Assembly (NCBI RefSeq): GCF_018420025.1
Contig: NZ_JAEDAM010000009.1
Span: 1-29,990, forward strand
From: Candidatus Vampirococcus lugosii
GTDB taxonomy: Bacteria; Patescibacteriota; Gracilibacteria; Absconditabacterales; Absconditicoccaceae
Reading direction: 5' to 3'
DNA length: 29,990 nt
The position numbers and the translations under genes were made by a program. Under the pieces are notes generated by a model, which was not told where the DNA came from, did no database searches, and worked only from the letters and a program-made list of their open reading frames with translations. Every line of letters starts with the position of its first letter. Position 1 is the stretch's first letter. This document shows, in pieces, positions 2,516-23,518 of this stretch.

Positions 2516-2676
2516 ATTAATCTATGGAGTGCATAAATTGTATTTTTTTTGAAAGATATTTAATATTTAAATTTTCAATTTTTGATTGATTAATTAATAT
2601 TAAGTTTTTTATATTTGACATAAAAAAAAATGAATATATAATAATATATTATTTTATATTAAAAATAAAAATAAAA

Positions 2677-3777
2677 ATGATTTCATATAAAGAAATAAAT
2701 TATATAATTGATTTATTTAGAGAAGTTGAAAGTTCAATATCAGAAATTGATTTTTTTGATTGTAAATCAAATAATAATTTTTTATATAGTTTTTTGTATA
2801 TTATAAATTTTAGACAATTTATTATAAATAAAATTTATGAAAATAAAAATATGAGATTTTATTTAAATGTTTTTAATTTTCAAAAAAATTTTAATAGTTT
2901 AGACGATATTGAAAATATTATTAAAAATAACAATATATTTGAAATTGATTTTGATAAAAATAATTTACATAAAATATATTCAAAAAATTTAGTAACTATA
3001 AGTTTTTTTATTAGATATTTAGAAAATAATAATATATTAAACTTAAATAATTTATTTTTAAAAAAACTATCTTTTTATGAATTTGAAAAATTTAAAAAAA
3101 ATAAAATAATAAATTATAAAAATCCTATATATGATTTTTATAAAAATAAATTTCTATGGAAAAATAATTTTGATAAATTTTTTGATGAAAAATATGAAGA
3201 AGTAAAAATTGAATATAAAGATAAACTTAAAAATAAAAAAGATATATGATATACTGAATATAAATTGATGCGACTTTATAATTATAATATACTTTATAAA
3301 TCTTATCAAAGTATAAATAATTTTAATTTTATAAAATATTTTATAGCAAAATATATATTTGATATATGAAATTATTTTAAATATAATTCAAATCAAATTA
3401 AATTTTTGTATTTATTTCATTTTTGTAAAAATTATGAACAATATAAAAAATTTCATAGTTTGTTTTATAAAAAAATCTCTCAAAAAAAAATTGATTTATA
3501 TCTAATTTGATTTTTTTCTTTTGTGTGAATATTTACTGCTTATTTTATAAATTTTAATATTTGATTTTTTGTTTTCTTAATAATTTTTGTTGTAATAATT
3601 ATAGGAATATATTCATATAAAAGAAATTTTTTATCAATTTTGCCTACAATAAGAGCTATTTGTTTATGATGAATATTAATTTCTGTAATTTATTTTTGAT
3701 ACGAAATAAATATAAATTTTAGTAAAGATAGTTTATTAAATATGACTGTAAATATATTGTCTTGAAAAAATAAATAA
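2677..3777 (+). CDS. Hypothetical membrane protein: Asn/Lys/Phe-rich N-terminal half, C-terminal transmembrane helices
   Basis: 366 aa. Standard-code ORF 2677..3249 continues in frame through several TGA codons to TAA at 3775. Hydrophobic helices include GFFSFVGIFTAYFINFNIGFFVFLIIFVVIIIGIY and AICLGGILISVIYFGY. No family recognised. In-frame CGA at 3271. Confidence 0.6.
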
Positions 3778-4496: not shown

Positions 4497-4528
4497 TTAG
4501 TTTTAATAAATTAAATTTTTTTATTTTG

Positions 4529-5941
4529 ATGGAGTTCAAAAAATATATAATAGTTTGAGTTTTATGATTGTTGTTGACTTTATGATTATGAATTTTTGTT
4601 TTTAAAGAACATTATGAATCAAATAAATTAAATGATTCAAATTTTTCTTATATTCCATCAAATTTTTCACAAGTATTTCATATAAACTTTGATGATAATC
4701 TATATTGATTCTTGGATGAAGCACCTGATGATATTTATGGTAGTCAAAATATTGTTGAAATATCTGATGGTTTAAATAGTGTTACTGCATATCAATGATC
4801 TTTGGATTGAAGTGATATATCGTTTATGATTTTTGATGTGCAAGATGATTTTGATTTTCAAAATTTATTAGATTCATGATTTTTGTATAAAGATTGAGAT
4901 TATGTTTATGAAAATATATCTAATAATAAATATATATATATAAAAGAATCTTTACTTGATTTGTTTTTGAATTATACTTGAAAAAGTATGGATGATTTAA
5001 GTTCATTGTCTTCGTATATTCAAGATTTAAAAAGTTCCAAAAAAAATATTTGACTTTTTTCAGAACCTAATGTAGAAAGTATTACTCAAACTAATTTTAA
5101 TTCTATATTTCCTTATTTGGATGATTTGGGTTATACTATATCTACTGCTAGACTTTCAAATAAAGATTTTGATTGATCAATCTCAGTTCTTTTTGATGAA
5201 AATATTGATCTTTTTCAAGATTATGAATTTGAATCTAAATATTCAGATAATTTGTTGGAAGATACTATAGCTTATCTTGAAGTTTGATCAATAACTGATT
5301 TGATATGAACTGATTCTATATGAGTTGATCTTAAAACATTAATAATGTCTATTGAATTATCACTTGAAGAATATTTTTGAGATTTATGATTATGACTTAC
5401 TGATTCAAATTATTCTGATTTGTGAAAGTCTTTATCCTCAAATATTTGATTAGTTGTAAATAAATGAAATAATGAAATGGGTGTATGAGCTAGGATTATA
5501 TTTGATGATATTTGAGTGTATAATGTTTTGGATGTATTTTTTCCATTTATTGTTCAATTTATTGAAGATTTAGATATTGAGTGAGAAATTTCAAAATTTA
5601 CTTGAGATAACGAATTTTGAATTAATTTCAATATACCTTATGTTTGATTAGTTGCTTTGGAGTCAAATATTATTGTATCTAATGATTGAGAAAGGACATA
5701 TATAGATATATTGGAGCCCAAATTGGATTCTGAATCAATAGATTTTGATTATAATAAATCTTCTATTTTATCTTATTATTTAAATTTATCAAATTTGTTT
5801 GATATAATGTATCCTGTTGGGTGATTCCAAGAATTCTGATTTACTAAAGAACAATTTGAATTTTTTCAAGATAAAAAAGTATTTTGAAATTTAGATATTG
5901 ATTGAAATAAAATAATATTTAATTTTAATTTAAAAAATTAA
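4529..5941 (+). CDS. Hypothetical acidic exported or membrane-anchored protein (single N-terminal hydrophobic helix)
   Basis: 470 aa, continuous frame with many TGA=Gly, ends TAA. N-terminus MEFKKYIIVGVLGLLLTLGLGIFVF followed by a long Asp/Glu/Ser/Asn-rich domain. No family recognised. Confidence 0.65.
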
Positions 5942-8284: not shown

Positions 8285-8602
8285 ATGAATAATTATGAAA
8301 AAAAACAAAAAATTATTGAAATTTTGGAAAAAGATGAAGATAAAAAGATTTATAATTTTTTTGTAAAAAATATTGATAAAATATCAGATGAAGATATTGA
8401 TGATATATATACATCTTTTACTACGGATGATAAAAATAAAATAAATGAAATTATAAAAAAAGATAATGAAAAGCTTAGTGAATTAATCTTAAAATTGGAA
8501 GAAATAGATACAAAAATAATAAAAAAAATATTACAACATAAAGAAGAAAACGAATCTCAAGAAGATATGGAAAATATTGAAAATTTATTTGATAAAATAT
8601 AA
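8285..8602 (+). CDS. Hypothetical small acidic coiled-coil protein
   Basis: 105-aa ORF intact even in the standard code (ATG to TAA). Very Asp/Glu/Lys-rich. No family recognised. Confidence 0.55.
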   Translation: MNNYEKKQKIIEILEKDEDKKIYNFFVKNIDKISDEDIDDIYTSFTTDDKNKINEIIKKDNEKLSELILKLEEIDTKIIKKILQHKEENESQEDMENIENLFDKI

Positions 8603-8609
8603 ACATAAA

Positions 8610-10253
8610 ATGACAATAGATAATTTTTCAGAAAATACTAGAAAAGCGGATGAATTTTTGGATAATTTGGAAACAGAAACTAAAGATTCTATAAGTGAAT
8701 CATTAAAGGTTGAAACAGAACATGCAATACCAGATATTGATTATGAAATAGAATTATATAAAAATGCATATAAAAAATTATCAGAGATGGAACAGAAATT
8801 TTGAGAAGCATTATGAGACTATTCTTTTGATCATTATGATTGAGAATTAGATACTAAATATAGTTATACTGAATTTGAAAAACTTGCAAGAGGTTTAAGA
8901 CAAGAATTAATAGATTTACAAAATACTAAAGAAGATATAGGTTTTCTTGAATATAAAGCTTCTGTAATATGAAGAAAAACATGATTGTATAAAAATCCTT
9001 TAAATTTTGATTATCTTTTATCAGAAAAACTTGGTAAAGAAACTAAACAAGAAAAACTATTTAATAAGATGGTTGATAAGTTGTTAGATGTTGAACGAGA
9101 AGTAAAAAACCATATAGTTAAAAGTTTAGAAACAGATTGAAAGTTGCCTGAAAGAGAAACAAAAATTAATTCGGATATTGAAAATTTAGAGTTTGAGACA
9201 GATTTATGAAGAATAAAATTTTCAGAAATTGAAGATTATGAACCTGAAACAACTACAGAAAAAATTGATTTATGGCGAAGTCAAAGAGAATATTTTGAAT
9301 GACCTGATTTAGTTATTGATTTGGGGCTTGATAAAGATGAAAATGAATCTAATATTGATGCAACAGATATTAATGAATTTACTGATTTACTTGTAAACTT
9401 ATTGGAAGAGAATCCAAATGTTTTGAAAGAGCTTGAAATACAAGATATTTATAATTTGTCTCCAAAAGAAGCTATTTTACTTTCATCAAAAATAGTTAAA
9501 GATAAATTAGAATTTTCTCTAACTAAAAGTTCTATTGATAAAAATGTAAATAATGATTGATTATTAAGACAATTTATTTGACTAATTAATACAGATTGGA
9601 TAAGTGATTATAAATTAAATGAAAGTGTTCTATCAAAATTACCACAAGAAATGCAAGATGAAATTAGAGAAAATCCTAAAGAAGCATACAAAAAATATTC
9701 TTCTGAGATAGATCAAGTATCTATGAACGAACTTTTTGAATCAAATAGTGAAGTAAGTTCCAAAAATTATTCACAAGCTGTAAAATTAGTTTTTGATATA
9801 CTTAAAGAAATGCAAGATCCAGATACAACACAATTGAAAAATACTTACTGTAAACAACATACAATAGATCTTTGAGAATTTGATGATTCAGAAATTGTTA
9901 GTAGTAGTTGGAATACTTTTTATACAATATCACCACATTATAGAAGTAATGTTGATGTAGTAATAATTGATGCAGCACATGCAGATTCTTGATTAGAACT
10001 TGATTGAAAAATTTCTTATTCTGAAGATAAATTTTTATTTAATTTAATTAATTTGGAAAAACAAGGTCTAATTTCAAAAGAAGAAAAAATTTATCAATTG
10101 GAATATTGGGCAAAATATAATGAAAATCGACAAACTCCTTTATACAAAAGTGTTTGTTCTTATATCGCAAATTATTATAAAGAAATATGAGAAACATATA
10201 AATATTTGAAATGGATGTGATATACAGATACTGAAAAAGAATATAATATATAA
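8610..10253 (+). CDS. Hypothetical large acidic protein (orphan)
   Basis: 547 aa. Standard-code fragments 8577, 9321 and 9651 are all in frame 0 and are joined only by TGA codons. Checked codon by codon with no TAA or TAG until 10251. Contains three in-frame CGA codons (9096, 9276, 10128). Confidence 0.7.
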
Positions 10254-15176: not shown

Positions 15177-15920
15177 ATGTATATTTTTACTTTTAATTTG
15201 TATTTTTCTTTTGATAAAATTGTTTATTTACAAACTTCAACAAAATTATCTATAGGTGATTTAATATATATTAAATGATCTTATGCAATAGTTTTATGAG
15301 ATAATATTTCTTTTAAAGAATTATATTATAAATATAATTTATCTTATGAAACTGTAGAAATTATATATAAAAATTTTTTGAATAAAAATTCAATCAAATT
15401 AATAAATTATATAGTATTGGAGTATTTTTCTACATTTAGAAAAGTTATTCCATTGTTTGTTCCAGATAATAATATAGATAAATTATTAAAAAATAAATTA
15501 AAAATTAAATCAATTAAACTAAATTCATTAGATATTATTGACAACAAAATATCTATTTCAAAAGAAATAAATAAAGAAAAAAAAATCTTTATTTTTCCAA
15601 ATGTTTGGTCTGCATACAATATTATAAATAATAATAAAATTATTGAAAATTATTGAATATATTATTGATCTACTAGTATTTTGTCAAAATCAAAATTATT
15701 TTGGGAAATATCAATGAATAAAAAATTAGATTTATTATGTACTCATTCTCAAATATTTCAGAATTGGTCAAATTTAAAAAAAATATATATATTTAATCCA
15801 CATACTTGGTATTACAAAACTCAACAAGAACCGAGATATAATATATGTAATATTATTGAATATATGTCAAAATTATATAAAAATGATTTAATATATATAA
15901 ATGATCTTCGTTTATTTTAA
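15177..15920 (+). CDS. PriA-like (primosomal protein N') remnant lacking Walker A, DEAH and the entire C-terminal half
   Basis: 247 aa. Standard-code fragments 15378 and 15681 share frame 0. Colinear with PriA landmarks. N-terminal barrel: LSIGDLIYIKGSYAIVLG. LINYIVLEYFSTFRKVIPLFVP vs l..w.a.yY....g.vl...lP. IFIFPNVWSA vs lvLvPEi.lt. SKSKLFWEISMNKKLDLLCTHSQIFQNWSNLKKIYIFNPHTWYYKTQQEPRYNICNI vs s..eR...W..i..G...iviGtRSAlF.P..nLglIivDEEHd.sYKq...PrY.aRdv. No GxGKT motif, and DEEH is replaced by FNPH. Confidence 0.5.
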
Positions 15921-16470: not shown

Positions 16471-18222
16471 ATGTTAAAATTAGATTTATCTGAAAAATAT
16501 TTTACAAGTCATGACAATAAAGATATCTATTACAAATCTTGGACAAATAATGAAAATAAAAAAGCTATAATATTGATACATAGAGGACATGAACATTCTT
16601 GAAGAATAGCACATTTGGTAGATGAGTTAAATACAAAAGATACAAATTTTTTTGCATGGGATGCTAGATGAAACTGAAAAACTGAATGAAAAAGATGATA
16701 CAGTCCAGATTTTTCTTATTTAGTAAAAGATTTAGATTATTTTGTAAAACATATTACAAAAGAATATTGAATTGAAGAAAAGAATATAATATTGATAGCA
16801 CAAAGTGTTTGAGCTGTAGTAGCTTCTACTTGGTTGCATGATTATGCACCCAAAATAAAATGTGCAGTATTGGCATCTCCTGCTTTCAATGTAAACCTAA
16901 TAATTCCATGACTTAAACATATTCTTAAATTATGGCAAAAAATAAGATGAAATTATACTGTAAAATCTTATGTAAAATGAAAAGATTTAACTCATGATAT
17001 AGAAAGAAGTAAATCTTATGATACTGATCCTTTAATATCTTTAGATATTTCATCAAATATTTTATTGGAATTATATGAAAATTCTGATAGGGTAATAAAA
17101 GATGCATCGGCTATAAATATTCCAGTACTTTTATTAACTTCATGAGATGATAAAGTAGTTTTTAAGAAAGAACAAAAAATATTTTTTGATAATTTATCGT
17201 CCTCAAATAAAGAACATCATATATTAGAATGATTTTATCATGATACATTATGAGAAAAAGATAGACATATTGCTATGAAATTAATAGAAGATTTTATTGA
17301 AAAATTAGAATCTTGAGATAATGAAAATAATAATATAAATTTATTTGATTCATACAAAAAATGATATACTTATGATGAATTTATAAAATTATCAAAACCT
17401 TTAAATAAATTTTCATTAAAAAATATTAATTTTGCTACAACAAAATTTTTTATGAGAACATTATGAAAATCTTTATCAAAAGGTATAAACATAGCAGAAA
17501 AAACATGATATGATTCCTGATCTACACTTGATTATGTATACAAAAATCAAGCAGAATGAAAACTTTTTATATGAAAAATATTAGATAAATCATATTTAAA
17601 TAGTATTTGATGGAAATGAATTAGAAAAAGAAGGGAAAATTTGGAAAAAGCTATAAATATAGTAATTAATAAATTAGAAGAAAATAAAAAATCTATTAAA
17701 ATAATGGATATAGCAGCATGACATTGAAGATATATATTAAATTCTATTTTGCCATATAAAGATACAATAAATTCTGTTATACTTAGAGATTATAGTGATA
17801 TAAATGTTGAATGATGAAAAAAATTAATACAAGAGAAAAGTTTAGAAAATATAGTTAATTTCAAAAAAGCAGATGCATTTGATAAAAAAAGTATATCTGA
17901 TGAAAAAAATATAACTCTATGAATTGTTTCCTGATTATATGAATTATTTACAGATAATAATATGATAAATTCATCTTTGGAATGATTGTATAATGCAATA
18001 GAAAAAGATTGATATTTAATATATACAAATCAACCTTGGCATCCACAAATTGAATTTATTGCTAGAGTTTTAACAAGTCATAGACAATCTCAAAATTGGG
18101 TTATGAGAAGAAGAACACAAGCTGAAATGGATAGTTTAGTTGAAAATGTATGATTCAAAAAAATTGATCAATTTATTGATAAATGGTGAATTTTTACAGT
18201 TTCTATCGCAAAAAAAATATAA
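16471..18222 (+). CDS. Bifunctional alpha/beta hydrolase (lysophospholipase/monoacylglycerol-lipase-like) / class I SAM-dependent methyltransferase fusion
   Basis: 583 aa, checked codon by codon. Hydrolase half: ILIHRGHEHSGR (HG oxyanion region), nucleophile elbow IAQSVGAVVA, TSGDDKVV, GFYHDTL (Ser-Asp-His triad). Methyltransferase half: motif I IMDIAAGHGRY, followed by LGIVSGLYELF and GYLIYTNQPWHPQ. Confidence 0.8.
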
Positions 18223-19580: not shown

Positions 19581-21260
19581 ATGAAAAAATTATCATCAGA
19601 AGATTTGAGAAATATTTGGAAAAATTTTTGGGAAAATTGAGAAAAAGATCATAAATATCTTAAATATTCATCATTAATACCAGATAGTAAAGATAAAACA
19701 GTTCTTTTCAATACTGCTTGAATGCAACAGCTTGTATCATATTTGCTTGGTAAACCTCATCCTTTATGAAATAGGCTTTATAATATTCAAAAAAGTTTGA
19801 GAACTTGAGATATAGATGAAGTAGGAGACGAAAGACATCTTACATTTTTTGAAATGTTTGGAAATTGGTCTTTATGAGATTTTTTTAAAAAAGAATCTTT
19901 GACTTGGTCTGTAGAATTTTTAAATAAAGAAATTTGAATTTCTATAGAAAAAATTTGAGCAACAATTTTTGCTTGAGATGAAACTTTATGAATATGAGAA
20001 GATATAGAAGCTAGAAAAATTCTTAATGAAATATGAATTCCTAATTCAAGAATTAAAGCAATATGAATGGAAGATAATTTCCGAGGACCAGCAGGGGAGT
20101 TGGGACCTTGTTGACCTTGTTCAGAATTTTTTGTTGATAGAGGTGAAGAATGGTGAAAAAATAATTGGGATATGTGAGAAAATGATAGATTTATAGAAGT
20201 TTGGAATAATGTTTTTATGGAGTTTTACAAAAATGAAGATTGAACTTTTTCAAAATTAAAACAAAAAAATGTAGATACAGGTATGTGACTTGAAAGACTT
20301 GCTATGATTTTACAAAATAAACAAACAGTTTTTGAAACTGATTTATTTGAATTTATTATGATAAGTTTACAAAATTTTGTTTGAAAAAAATATGCACCGT
20401 TCCAAAAACATGAAAATGAGTTTGATCAACAAGAAAAAAATGATACAAGGCATTTCAGAATAATAGCAGATCATATAAGAACAGCTATTTTTATGATTTG
20501 AGATTGAGTAATTGCTAGTAATGATGGTAGATGATATGTACTTAGAAGACTTATCAGAAGATTTTATTATTCTCTTATTTCTCTCAATGAAAATATTAAA
20601 TTAGATGATTTTATTAATGATTTGGTAAATAAAGTAAACCAAAAATATTGAACTTATTATATAGAAATTTCAAATGGTGTAAATAATATTATTTCATCTA
20701 TATTAAACGAAATTTATCAATTTCAAAAAACAATTAATAATTGAATAAGAGAATTTGAAAAAATAGTAAAAGAAATAAAAAATTCTGATAATCCAAATAG
20801 GAATTATTTGACATGAGAAGAGGCATTCAAATTATATGATACTTATTGATTACCAGTAGATATGATAGAAGAACTTGCTTTCCAAACTTGATTTTCAGAA
20901 AAGTGATTAAATCCTGTTTCTTTTATTGAATTTGAAAAAGCTATGGAAAAAGCAAGAGAAAAATCTCGTAAATCTTCAAAAGATATGTTCAAAAGATGAA
21001 TTGATTGGGCAAAATATTTGGATTGAATTAGTCCTACAGAATTTGTTTGATATGAAAATTTGGAATTGGAATGAATAAAAATTTTGAAAGATTTTGAAGT
21101 AAACTGACAAAGAGTTATTATTTTTGATAAAACTCCTTTTTATGCAGAATCTGGAGGTCAAACTTCTGATATTGGAATTTTGGAATTTGATGATAATAAT
21201 GTATTAAATATTTATGAAGTTCAAAATTATTCTGGTGTATTTTTACATTTTATTAAATAA
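19581..21260 (+). CDS. alaS: Alanine--tRNA ligase, catalytic and tRNA-recognition domains only (no editing or C-Ala domain)
   Basis: 559 aa. VLFNTAGMQQ; HLTFFEMFGNWSLGDFFK; EDNF-[CGA][91 protein letters not shown]. Ends TAA at 21258, just inside the beta-barrel and before any HxxxH/CxxxH editing motifs. Confidence 0.9.
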
Positions 21261-21316: not shown

Positions 21317-21344
21317 TTGACATTAATAAAAAAAATATTAAAAT
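21317..21344 (+). promoter_or_regulatory. Candidate sigma70-type promoter for the pilin-repeat gene
   Basis: Perfect TTGACA (21317-21322), 16-nt spacer, TAAAAT (21339-21344), about 40 nt upstream of ATG 21386. -10-like hexamers are common in DNA this AT-rich, so this is tentative. Confidence 0.3.
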
Positions 21345-21385: not shown

Positions 21386-23518
21386 ATGAGAAATAATAAA
21401 TGATTTAGTATGATAGAAACTGTGGTGTCAATATGAGTAATTGCTATATTGGCAATAATTGCAGGATTAAGTATTACTATTTGGGTAAGTAAAGCAAGAG
21501 ATGCAGAAGTGGTAAATAATGTAACGACTATAGCATGATGACTTGAAAGTTATCATGTAACAAATTTTGAGTATCCAGAACCAGATGGAAATATTTTAAC
21601 ATGAAATTTGGAGCAGTGAATAATGTGAACTTGAGTTATTGAAGAATTATCAAGTTTTGTAAATGTAAAAAATTTATCAAATTCTAATAAATATATTTAT
21701 AGTACTTATCAAATTTATGATCATTATCAAGTAGTATGATTATTGGAAAATGATGTTCAAATACAGGCATATGATTATATGATAGATAAGGCATATGCAA
21801 ATACAGATGCAACTATAAAACTATGAAATAAAGGATACTATTCAAAATGAACTATTGGAATGCATTTAATAGCAAATCAAGATAATACTTTGGTGCTTGA
21901 ATGAAATGATTTAAAATCAAGTTATAAATTGATAAGTAATATTTGAAATGAAGATATTGTTTTAAATAATTTAGATGATGTTAAAAAAATTTCAGAAACT
22001 ATTGTTAAAAATTGATGATCTTGATGAGATTGATGAAATTCGGATTTGTTATGAACTATTGAATGTAGTGATAAAACAGTTTGAACTACATTTGAAATAT
22101 TTTGAGATACATATTATGTAGCAAGTGATAAAAAAGATATTCAAGATAATATTGATGGAGAAATAGATGGAAGTAATTTTATATGAGATTATCCAGCTAA
22201 TAGAATATGTACAAGTAATGTTACTGATATGAGTAGTTTATTTAATTGAGAAGAAAATTTCAATCAAAATATATCAAATTGGGATACAAGTCAGGTTACT
22301 ACTATGAGACAAATGTTTTGGAATGCAAGTTCATTTAATCAAGATATAGCAAATTGGGATACAAGTAATGTTACTAATATGAAACAAATGTTTTTTAATG
22401 CAAGTTTATTTAATCAAGATATAAGTACTTGGGATACAAGTAATGTTACTACTATGAAAGAAATGTTTTGGAATGCAAGTTTATTTAATAAAGATATATG
22501 AGATTGGGATATAAGTCAGGTTGATACTATGAATATGGAATGAATGTTTAGATGAGCAAGTTCATTTAATCAAGATATAGGTGATTGGGATACGAGTAAT
22601 GTTACTACTATGAGATCGATGTTTTGGAATGCAAGTTCATTTAATCAAGATATAGGTGATTGGGATACAAGTAATGTTACCACTATGAGATCAATGTTTA
22701 GATGAGCAAGTTTATTTAATCAAGATATAGGAAATTGGGATACAAGTAATGTTGATACTATGAGTTATATGTTTAAAGATGCAAGTTTATTTAATCAAGA
22801 TATATCAACTAAAAAAGTAAATGAATGAAGTGATGATGAATATATAGCTTGGGATACGAGTAATGTTACTACTATGAGATCGATGTTTAATTGAGCAAGT
22901 GTATTTAATCAAGATATATGAAGTTGGAATACAAGTAATGTTACTAACATGGAAGATATGTTTTATTGAGCAAGTTCATTTAATCAAAATATATGAAATT
23001 GGGATACAAGTAAGGTTGCTACTATGAATAGAAATAGAGATGGTTGAATGTTTAGATGAGCAAGTTCATTTAATAATGGATGTGATGAATGAGATCTTGG
23101 TTGTGATTTAAATAATTGGGATACAAGTAATATTACTACTATGAGAGAAATGTTTAGATGAGCAAGTTCATTTAATCAAGATATAGGTGATTGGAATACA
23201 AGTTATGTTAAAGATATGACACATATGTTTAACTGAGCAGATAGTTTTAATCAAGATATAGGTGATTGGAATACAAGTAATGTTACTAATATGAGTTATA
23301 TGCTTAAAGCAGAAAATTTTAATAATTGATGTGATAAATGAGTTTCAGGTTGTCCTTTAGGTTGGGATACAAGTAATGTTACTAGTATGTTTCAAATGTT
23401 TAATGATGCAGAAAGTTTTAATCAAGATCTATCATGATGGTCTGTTAGTAGTGTAACAGATAATCGGGCATTTGATGATTGAGCCAATGCACGAACAGAA
23501 CCAAAACCACAATGGTAA
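21386..23518 (+). CDS. Type IV prepilin-like protein fused to a DUF285 / BspA-type leucine-rich repeat domain
   Basis: 710 aa. Class III signal MRNNKG|[22 protein letters not shown] with the -1 Gly encoded by TGA (21401-21403), Glu at +5 and a hydrophobic pilin helix. Then a ~230-aa unique region and ~15 repeats of consensus [11 protein letters not shown].MF.[10 protein letters not shown] (DUF285 signature). Standard-code fragment 22304..22501 is in frame. Confidence 0.85.
22208..23470 (+). repeat. Coding tandem repeat array, 75-nt (25-aa) unit with occasional insertions, about 15 units
   Basis: The Trp codons of successive WDTS motifs at 22280, 22355 and 22430 are exactly 75 nt apart. Neighbouring units (for example from 22583 and from 22658) differ at roughly ten of 75 positions by hand comparison. 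Confidence 0.85.

Follow-up and report, generated by a model that had tools for sequence, protein, structure and literature searches.

Several described systems are close to the gene analysed here. One of them is the class of modular pilins, which is characterised both in structure and in function. Modular pilins are defined by the signal IPR012902 together with a domain that is not specific to pilus biology, and PilB (vWA module) and PilC (lectin module) of Streptococcus sanguinis are tip-displayed adhesins of this kind (Raynaud et al. 2021, PMC8179133; Shahin et al. 2023, PMC9934059). The combination IPR012902-IPR005046, that is N_methyl-DUF285 (we confirmed that IPR005046 corresponds to DUF285), is catalogued in Dataset S1 of Raynaud et al. 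2021 (PMC8179133) with 22 proteins in 9 architectures and up to 9 DUF285 matches per protein, as counts alone, without description, taxa or function. Beyond this table, our literature search found nothing that ties DUF285 to type IV pilins or to CPR bacteria. ETEC CofB, Thermus ComZ and T2SS GspK are large minor pilins at the filament tip whose additional domains, without a match to any domain signature, either interrupt the pilin fold or are joined to it; in ComZ, a beta-solenoid module is implicated in DNA binding (PMC8179133). The CPR episymbiont Nanosynbacter lyticus TM7x has the minor pilins PilX1 (beta-jelly-roll) and PilX2 (RCC1 beta-propeller), and deletion of pilX2 halves host binding (PMC11623550). 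DUF285 itself occurs in the PARCEL surface proteins, among them Mycoplasma lipoproteins and Listeria surface proteins (Roske et al. 2010, PMC2996958). These carry lipoprotein or Sec signals or TM anchors; the paper mentions no prepilin-type signal and uses the word 'pilin' 0 times.

The window analysed here, 29,990 nt in length, is one whole contig from Candidatus Vampirococcus lugosii. This CPR bacterium preys on other bacteria, and its genome was published in the same year as Dataset S1. One gene of the window encodes a protein with the same two signatures, in the same order, as the Dataset S1 entries; the architecture, which the earlier note did not recognise as a described family, is therefore a described one. 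As in S. sanguinis PilB and PilC, the N-terminal IPR012902 signal leads into a pilin module of small size, which a short linker connects to a bulky non-pilus domain at the C-terminus, and the predicted role is that of a tip-exposed adhesin. However, the head is a DUF285 solenoid of 15-16 units instead of a vWA or ConA-like lectin domain, the organism is a predator of bacteria whereas S. sanguinis is an animal commensal, and the protein is described by its sequence and predicted structure. Like PilX1 and PilX2 of TM7x, it would be a large minor pilin of a CPR episymbiont with an extra C-terminal binding domain, and the RCC1 head of PilX2 is also present in its pilin-module family. The heads differ, however, and the pilX genes lie within T4P loci whereas the present gene is unlinked to pil genes. 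In addition, SignalP found no PilD signal in PilX1 or PilX2, whereas the present protein has a canonical G|F...E5. It shares with CofB, ComZ and GspK a pilin module with extra structural domains; ComZ is linked to DNA, whereas the present head is acidic. It has in common with the PARCEL proteins the tandem 25-residue units and their consensus, a number of units that varies, targeting to the membrane and signs of having spread horizontally (PMC2996958). Tannerella forsythia BspA and other LRR_5 (PF13306) proteins are solenoid repeat surface adhesins, as the present protein is predicted to be, but they have a different repeat consensus.

The gene and its parts

Read with code 25, in which UGA is glycine, positions 21386-23518 of the forward strand form a single ORF of 710 aa, exactly as the earlier note had placed it, and these coordinates are exact only under table 25. 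A reading under table 11 was rejected, since it meets 42 in-frame TGA 'stops', all at Gly-compatible positions. The frame contains 42 TGA, no TAG and one TAA, the terminator, and in the contig's other 24 genes TGA makes up 84% of the Gly codons. The genome paper of V. lugosii likewise gives UGA as Gly. The product is already public (MBS8121680.1 / WP_213348450.1) with both Pfam domains precomputed, and the gene is most likely VAMP_13_272, one of the 126 HGT genes listed for V. lugosii. Its features are the following.

21317..21344, + strand: sigma-70-like promoter match TTGACA-16-TAAAAT, with 11/12 matches the region's best, 42 nt before the ATG
21386..23518, + strand: complete coding sequence of 710 aa with its TAA terminator, open only if UGA is Gly; product MBS8121680.1 / WP_213348450.1
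21386..21403, + strand: predicted class III leader MRNNKG; the codon of the -1 Gly is TGA (21401-21403)
21404..21475, + strand: predicted mature N-terminus FSMIE... with Glu+5 and hydrophobic alpha1-N (aa 7-30), by N_methyl and TIGR02532
21404..22009, + strand: pilin module (aa 7-208), alpha1 plus predicted antiparallel beta-sheet head, by alignment A4, GspG/EpsG profile matches and AF2
22010..22048, + strand: Gly-rich flexible linker (aa 209-221, GGSGGDGGNSDLL), read from the sequence; pLDDT <50
22049..22201, + strand: DUF285 N-terminal cap (aa 222-272; Cys227, Cys272), aligning with the start of all three P0051 cassettes
22202..23437, + strand: predicted solenoid of DUF285/PARCEL repeats (aa 273-684), with a degenerate unit before 14 full ones of 25 aa
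23438..23515, + strand: degenerate last unit or C-terminal cap, plus tail (aa 685-710), by repeat parsing and structure model

The N-terminus carries the cleavage motif MRNNKG|FSMIE, with a short basic leader, Gly(-1), Phe+1 and Glu+5. PF07963 (N_methyl) matches aa 1-26 with 24.9 bits against a curated cut-off of 21.2, and TIGR02532 scores 18.0 against a cut-off of 16.3; the class III signal proposed in the earlier note is thereby borne out. The alpha1 helix, which starts with about 20 hydrophobic residues, was predicted over aa 9-60 by each of the two AF2 models and reaches a pLDDT of 96, and the profile aligns with alpha1 of solved pilins, including Geobacter PilA-N. Upstream there is no alternative start, as an in-frame TAA lies 7 codons 5' with no start codon between. 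The NNKG|F of the leader is conserved in three paralogs (P0001, P0122 and P0247). Initiation at Met9 was rejected, as it would delete this conserved leader.

Between signal and repeats the earlier note had seen a unique region of about 230 aa. This region is in fact a conserved pilin head (to about aa 208), the linker and the DUF285 cap. The motifs YPxPD, QGxxG, YxYS, YQ...LE and YA of the pilin module are kept in the family alignment (A4) beyond alpha1, to about aa 150. A profile of the module matched solved type IV pilins with E values of 1e-17 to 1e-8 and the GspG/EpsG heads (3gn9, 3fu1, 4lw9) with E values of 0.002-0.009. The AF2 model of the module has a pTM of 0.72 and shows alpha1 followed by a beta-sheet; aa 120-150 are poorly predicted (pLDDT <50 for aa 125-144), and so are aa 176-272. 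Foldseek comparison of the pilin-module and DUF285-bearing models with the PDB gave no significant match for either. By sequence homology, the product belongs with the prepilins and has a genuine pilin module in addition to the signal. It fits the modular-pilin definition by N_methyl at aa 1-26 plus DUF285, and P0001 homology, linker and P0051 homology mark two distinct modules. The P0001 homology stops at aa 175 and the P0051 cassette starts at aa 222; the linker region between them contains a GGSGGDGG stretch at aa 209-216.

The complete DUF285 cassette comprises aa 222-710; behind its cap lie 14 full units of 25 aa, flanked by a degenerate unit at either end. The cap pattern GTIEC...G.TYYVA.D...YPANRIC is also found in P0291. 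The full units bear W(D/N)TS, and the degenerate first unit occupies aa 273-298; with 14 full units, this first unit and a C-terminal cap, the earlier count of about 15 repeats was right. PF03382 (DUF285) matches with E=2.5e-151, and the TIGR02167 PARCEL repeat matches in 11 stretches with 224 bits against a cut-off of 30, which agrees with the repeat domain proposed before and assigns it to DUF285/PARCEL and to no unrelated intracellular family. The C-terminal 490 aa are confidently predicted as a solenoid, with pLDDT mostly >90 over aa 273-684. Insertions occur in units 7, 10 and 13, two of them bearing Cys pairs (C565/C571 and C658/C664), and the head is strongly acidic (D+E 57 against K+R 25). 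The paired Cys and the acidic composition suggest an extracellular fate of the head.

A PDB sequence search with the DUF285 part gave no match; the best PDB folds for the model, not significant, were the Bacteroides 'putative cell surface proteins' 4fd0 and 4fdw. The 'BspA-like' label in the earlier note is not supported, as PF13306 (LRR_5/BspA) has no match in the protein at E<=0.01 and 'BspA family LRR surface protein' is just the NCBI product name for DUF285 matches. We take DUF285 to be placed in the Pfam LRR clan, and any resemblance to BspA to be at most clan-level. To our knowledge, no DUF285 domain anywhere has a known function, and the binding role of the present head is therefore assigned by analogy.

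A carrier module shared with other pilins

At least four V. lugosii paralogs contain the same pilin module. P0001 is 71% identical to the present protein over aa 2-175, after which the two part and P0001 continues with an Lcl_C-like C-terminus; additional copies are P0122 and P0247. The one complete paralog has another C-terminus, and two paralogs end at contig ends. The DUF285 cassette in turn has a Sec-secreted paralog in V. lugosii, P0051, whose three cassettes show 45-51% identity to aa 222-710, including the cap and the Cys-loop insertion. These copies fit a carrier-plus-effector logic in V. lugosii, in which paralogs reuse the same carrier module and the cassette is found on a Sec-secreted protein. 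In addition, an independent code-25 contig (P0291/L003) joins the same pilin module to a DUF285 cap and units.

The module is common to hundreds of CPR pilins, and matches to its family number at least 1,600. It was found in 106 of the 148 representative matches, 93 of the 106 being at least 250 aa long, with a median length of 464 aa. The heads on the long members include Laminin_G_3 (20), Lcl_C (13), Fibrinogen_C (6), EPTP, RCC1, TSP1 and DUF285 (1). Judged by these matches, the pilin module belongs to a large family in CPR bacteria that recode UGA, and most of the pilins in this family are long. A homology search by word index with aa 1-297 gave P0001 as its single match and did not recover even the query protein, so this negative is weak. 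The module alignment, scanned against a genome collection that does not contain V. lugosii, found only an unrelated Glaciimonas pilin, and a metagenome scan found no relatives.

Profile searches found no pilus machinery or prepilin peptidase genes on the 30-kb contig, and none of three family members in relatives has pil genes beside it. The genome paper ascribes to V. lugosii a rich T4P repertoire, presumed to serve host attachment; because the contig itself has no such genes, T4P machinery in V. lugosii is taken from this one sentence. The earlier note had named three observations that would speak against its proposal, namely a genome without pilus machinery, a different true start and repeats of an unrelated intracellular family. 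None of them was made, the machinery being judged from the genome-paper sentence.

Proposed display on a type IV pilus and its alternatives

We propose, as the probable reading, that the gene encodes a modular type IV pilin in which a carrier module, a flexible Gly-rich linker and a predicted binding cassette, the LRR-like DUF285 solenoid, are combined for display on the T4P and for prey binding. The protein is probably a prey-contact adhesin displayed on the pilus. We infer its cleavage, incorporation into a filament, tip position, ligand and role in predation as follows. The hydrophobic alpha1-N segment would insert the protein into the membrane, and the prepilin peptidase would cut after Gly6, with N-methylation of Phe7. 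The T4P machinery of V. lugosii might then lift the pilin module into the filament, where the bulk of the 490-aa head makes a place at the tip or close to it the most likely one. The acidic, disulfide-stapled solenoid, held off the cell, would bind a surface ligand, most likely on the envelope of the anoxygenic phototrophic Gammaproteobacteria that serve as prey, and retraction of the pilus would draw predator and prey together. Several points count against this proposal, namely the contig without pilus-machinery genes, the family members in relatives away from pil genes, the Foldseek comparisons without a significant PDB match, the poorly predicted stretches and a binding role assigned by analogy. 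In addition, some systems have a foremost tip subunit without Glu+5, GspK being an example, whereas the present protein keeps it.

Surface display without a filament is an unlikely alternative. The class III signal would then serve membrane insertion and perhaps processing, the protein would remain attached to the cytoplasmic membrane or lie just outside it after release, and the solenoid would be part of the fibrous sticky coat seen on Vampirococcus cells. Archaeal binding proteins with class III signals are thought to be displayed at the cell surface in such a manner. The missing linkage to pil genes, here and in relatives, agrees with it, as does a 490-aa head that fits a filament shaft poorly. 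P0051 exports the same DUF285 cassette by an ordinary Sec signal, and therefore a pilus is not required for display of the cassette. In addition, the genome paper ascribes the fibrous surface of V. lugosii to many membrane proteins with adhesion domains. However, the protein keeps, by its sequence, a full conserved pilin head and Glu+5, beyond what a mere hydrophobic anchor needs, and the conservation of the head motifs over more than 100 family representatives argues for selection on filament contacts; characterised modular pilins, moreover, are filament subunits. If the protein is displayed on the pilus, its ligand might still not be on the prey, and adhesion of predator to predator in the stacked 'stalks', or to another substrate, seems to us improbable. 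Stalks of piled Vampirococcus cells and a sticky surface crucial for transmission are reported in the genome paper, the sequence gives no pointer to the ligand, and with several alternative heads on the same carrier in V. lugosii, different paralogs may serve different partners. Nevertheless, in the sole functional precedent from CPR bacteria it is host binding that a modular minor pilin is linked to.

A role as accessory subunit in a Com-type competence pilus or in a T2SS-like pseudopilus, for DNA capture or for secretion and by analogy with ComZ, is very unlikely. V. lugosii does encode ComEC and ComEA, and its T4P have been proposed for host DNA uptake (genome paper); the pilin module resembles GspG, and the literature counts ComZ, with its solenoid module, among the modular pilins. 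However, ComZ-like DNA binding is unlikely because the head is acidic, and published descriptions of DUF285/PARCEL proteins are of variable surface proteins and not of binders of nucleic acids (PMC2996958). We give scarcely any credence to the fusion being an artefact, either a chimeric assembly of a pilin gene and a DUF285 gene or a decaying pseudogene. The genome assembly is fragmented and the sample non-axenic, the genome has several paralogs of both halves, and two paralogs are cut off by contig ends. Nevertheless, the frame is open over 2,133 nt with uniform code-25 usage and TGA as Gly in all three parts, and the junction is a purpose-like Gly-rich linker without a repeat common to both parents. 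The same type of fusion recurs on the independent contig of P0291, and the 22 N_methyl-DUF285 fusions have been catalogued elsewhere.

The recognition of bacterial hosts by CPR episymbionts and predators is an open question, for which type IV pili are leading candidates, and the proposed modular pilin is a concrete and testable candidate for this step in V. lugosii, which is among the few predatory CPR bacteria with known prey. DUF285 is widespread without an assigned function, and a pilus-displayed copy would provide a clean system for a ligand search. The value of the proposal is incremental, because modular pilins and a modular minor pilin in Saccharibacteria host binding are already published; new here are the specific candidate and the comparative evidence for head swaps on a shared carrier, within one genome and across a large family. 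A wider and tentative proposal is that in the UGA-recoded CPR bacteria (Absconditabacteria, Gracilibacteria, Vampirococcus) one carrier pilin module may be a plug-in scaffold for swappable binding cassettes, acquired by intragenomic shuffling from Sec-secreted surface proteins, and that the at least four V. lugosii paralogs may form a combinatorial prey-recognition toolkit at the pilus tip. If so, the paralog set would fix the prey range of V. lugosii, and the DUF285 pilin would be the first assignment of a ligand-binding role to DUF285. The cassettes named for such a scaffold are DUF285, Lcl_C/DUF1566, ConA-like lectin, fibrinogen-C, RCC1, EPTP and others.

Promoter match and repeat DNA

The promoter match lies within the 125-nt gap 3' of alaS and is suggestive at most, because such sites are no commoner in this AT-rich region than in shuffles. 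Within the repeat DNA, no inverted repeats of at least 14 nt within 80 nt were found, by a test cruder than the dyad-symmetry test of the PARCEL paper. TRF detected a 75-nt period in the repeat DNA. The antisense strand holds a 164-codon open frame with its own 25-aa periodicity.

Reading frame and published record

In the standard bacterial code, 21386-23518 is broken into short fragments. All 42 internal stops of this frame are TGA and none is TAG, and the terminator is TAA. UGA is read as glycine in this organism according to the V. lugosii genome paper, and TGA makes up 356 of the 424 Gly codons (84%) in the other 24 genes of the contig, whose G+C content is 20%. GGC and GGG are nearly extinct as Gly codons on the contig. 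Translation with code 25 yields a 710-aa protein (the target) with the leader MRNNKG↓ (arrow, predicted cleavage site), the -1 Gly of which is itself encoded by TGA. There is no earlier start, because a TAA stands seven codons upstream, and the leader NNKG↓F is kept in three paralogs. The earlier note had placed a prepilin with DUF285 repeats at 21386-23518, and both the feature and its coordinates were borne out by the code-25 frame, the profile scores and the repeat units.

The window covers one complete 29,990-bp contig of Candidatus Vampirococcus lugosii. Its target protein is MBS8121680.1 / WP_213348450.1, named 'membrane protein' in GenBank and 'BspA family leucine-rich repeat surface protein' in RefSeq, and both Pfam domains are already precomputed in its public record. 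V. lugosii, which is related to Absconditabacteria, preys as an epibiont on anoxygenic phototrophic Gammaproteobacteria. Its genome paper mentions neither the target protein nor DUF285 pilins or individual Pil components, and lists 126 horizontally acquired genes. The gene numbers in this list interpolate linearly along the contig, placing VAMP_13_272 'membrane protein' at about 21.2 kb; therefore, it is most likely the target gene.

Pilin module and DUF285 cassette

By motifs and profile matches, the N-terminal part of the target (aa 7-208) is a pilin module, not a signal alone. The target scores 24.9 against Pfam N_methyl (cut-off 21.2) and 18.0 against TIGR02532 (cut-off 16.3). With the paralog P0001 as the query, 1,623 matches were obtained among 1.84 billion representatives; in 106 of the top 148, the N-terminus consists of the target's module, with an alignment over approximately aa 2-125/150. 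The trimmed alignment conserves the motifs YPxPD, QGxxG, DP...YxYS, YQ...LE and YA past the hydrophobic helix, nearly all of which are present in the target. The alignment profile matches solved type IV pilins with E-values of 1e-17 to 1e-8, and its positions 42-124 match the GspG/EpsG globular head (3gn9, E=0.002; 3fu1 and 4lw9, <0.01). In the AF2 model of aa 1-209 (pTM 0.72), aa 9-60 form a helix and several beta-strands come after it; Foldseek found no significant PDB neighbours for this model. The following elements accompany the module and the cassette.

aa 209-216: linker GGSGGDGG, directly after the pilin module
aa 222-272: cap with Cys227 and Cys272, preceding the DUF285 units
22189-22683, - strand: antisense open frame of 164 codons (code 25) opposite the repeat region, itself periodic at 25 aa

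The target's E-value against DUF285 is 2.5e-151, and 11 of its stretches match the PARCEL repeat model. The repeat region begins with a degenerate unit, continues with 14 full 25-residue W(D/N)TS units and closes with a C-terminal cap; a 75-nt period was detected by TRF. Three units contain insertions, two of them with Cys pairs. The repeats had been taken as BspA-type, yet by profile the target is not a BspA/LRR_5 member. The units are predicted to stack into a solenoid, each contributing one short strand, with pLDDT mostly >90. No significant PDB neighbour was found for this model, the top non-significant matches being two Bacteroides 'putative cell surface proteins', and a sequence search of solved structures gave no match. 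A search for inverted repeats of 14 nt or longer in the repeat region found none. The antisense frame is probably a by-product of PARCEL-type repeat DNA and not a gene. Standard GGN codons are relatively enriched in the repeat part (10/28 vs 68/424, Fisher p=0.016), consistent with the cassette having arrived later or having come from a higher-GC source.

Relatives of both halves and the wider family

The V. lugosii paralog P0001 (421 aa) shares 71% identity with the target over aa 2-175, beyond which its C-terminus diverges completely, with a weak Lcl_C/DUF1566 match. Two further V. lugosii copies of the module, P0122 and P0247, are each cut by a contig end. Target aa 222-710 is 45-51% identical to each of three cassettes of the V. 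lugosii protein P0051, and the alignment covers the cap (G.I.C...G.T.EI.G..YYVA.D ... [VI]TDM) and the insertion FNNGC.EGD..CDLN.WDTSN. P0051 has an ordinary Sec-type signal. Besides a Fib_succ_major domain, this partial surface protein of 1202 aa contains at least three complete DUF285 cassettes, all with the identical cap type. It resembles a store of cassettes similar to the one joined to the pilin, and may be 'VAMP_368_47 DUF285' of the published list. Since both halves have relatives in V. lugosii, the target reads as a putative carrier pilin module with a grafted resident DUF285 cassette, joined via a flexible linker. In another sample, a code-25 contig (L003) encodes a protein, P0291, that joins this pilin module to a DUF285 cap and two units. 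A word-index homology search with aa 1-297 missed the target's own entry P0002, which the full-length query retrieved; therefore, negatives of this search need caution.

Among the best 148 of the 1,623 matches, 93 of the 106 representatives carrying the module reach 250 aa or more; the median length stands at 464 aa. The named carriers are from Gracilibacteria and Absconditabacteria. About half of the carriers are Trp-rich and Gly-poor, as is characteristic of code-25 genes whose UGA codons were translated as Trp.

Domains in the extensions past the module, 93 long members (number of members)
Laminin_G_3 lectin domains: 20
Lcl_C: 13
Fibrinogen_C: 6
EPTP: 3
RCC1-like propellers: 2-3
DUF285, TSP1, CARDB, Flg_new and others: 1 each

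These predicted extensions follow a 'carrier plus interchangeable effector' pattern. The added insight is modest: one carrier pilin module is reused with many different heads in V. lugosii and its relatives. The -1 residue in many or most family members (alignment A4; P0261-P0389) is Ala, not Gly (...K/Q-A↓FTLVE...); in the V. lugosii paralogs it is still Gly. The prepilin peptidase of these lineages may thus be less selective at -1.

Modular pilins were defined from S. sanguinis PilB, and their catalogue holds 1,219 proteins in 264 architectures, with many examples from CPR bacteria (Raynaud et al. 2021, PMC8179133). In its Dataset S1, the architecture IPR012902-IPR005046 has nine variants with 22 proteins in total, and IPR005046 was confirmed to be DUF285. 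The suggestion that this architecture was undescribed thus fails, N_methyl-DUF285 having been catalogued. Beyond this table, we found no literature tying DUF285 to type IV pilins or CPR bacteria. The PARCEL/DUF285 paper (PMC2996958) describes the 25-residue repeat, membrane targeting and horizontal spread, but nowhere mentions a prepilin signal. Two minor pilins of TM7x (Saccharibacteria), PilX1 and PilX2, bear extra C-terminal domains, and host binding falls by half when pilX2 is deleted (PMC11623550).

Possible function and neighbouring genes

The best-supported reading, of which we show the sequence-level parts, is that the target is a modular type IV pilin. From characterised modular pilins we infer its processing, assembly, position and ligand. 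The protein would insert into the membrane via alpha1-N and be cleaved after Gly6, with N-methylation of Phe7. The pilin module would let it join a type IV filament; with a head of 490 aa, its place there would probably be the tip or close to it. The acidic, Cys-stapled solenoid would bind a ligand, most plausibly on the prey envelope, and retraction would draw the cells together. Two points count against the modular-pilin reading: no pil genes were found on this contig or adjoining three family members in relatives, and we know of no DUF285 domain with known function.

Two rival readings are less likely: surface display without a filament, which would fit the Sec export of a like cassette in P0051, and a pilus-borne head that binds something besides prey, which would fit the cell-to-cell stacking described for V. 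lugosii in its genome paper. The acidic head (D+E 57 vs K+R 25) makes a role in a competence pilus unlikely. An assembly chimera is also unlikely, since code-25 usage is uniform, a linker is present at the junction and the fusion occurs independently (P0291/L003; Dataset S1 of PMC8179133). The host-recognition idea is reasonable and agrees with current knowledge, and the modular pilin proposed here is a good, specific candidate for prey-recognition experiments in a CPR predator.

Other genes on the contig are as follows.

2524-3777, + strand: 417-aa predicted membrane protein, 12% G+C, no Pfam match
4526-5941, 8577-10253 and 15177-15920: ORFs without family match
16471-18222, + strand: 583-aa fusion of Hydrolase_4 (lysophospholipase-like) and Methyltransf_20
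19581-21260, + strand: alanyl-tRNA synthetase gene directly upstream of the target, only 559 aa
23684-26168, + strand: directly downstream of the target, a 190-aa protein, then overlapping ABC ATPase and FtsX-like permease genes

The short alanyl-tRNA synthetase comprises the catalytic core (tRNA-synt_2c, aa 9-558), apparently without the editing and C-terminal domains of the full-length bacterial enzyme. The 190-aa protein has an N-terminal signal-like helix, several Cys and no Pfam match. In the Gracilibacteria relative L002, ABC and MacB/FtsX genes lie 7-9 kb downstream of a long pilin; the sharing of such genes is probably a coincidence. The 583-aa fusion matches 'VAMP_13_214 lysophospholipase' of the published horizontal-transfer list, which also includes the contig's AdoHcyase-like gene, ABC transporter and SOD.
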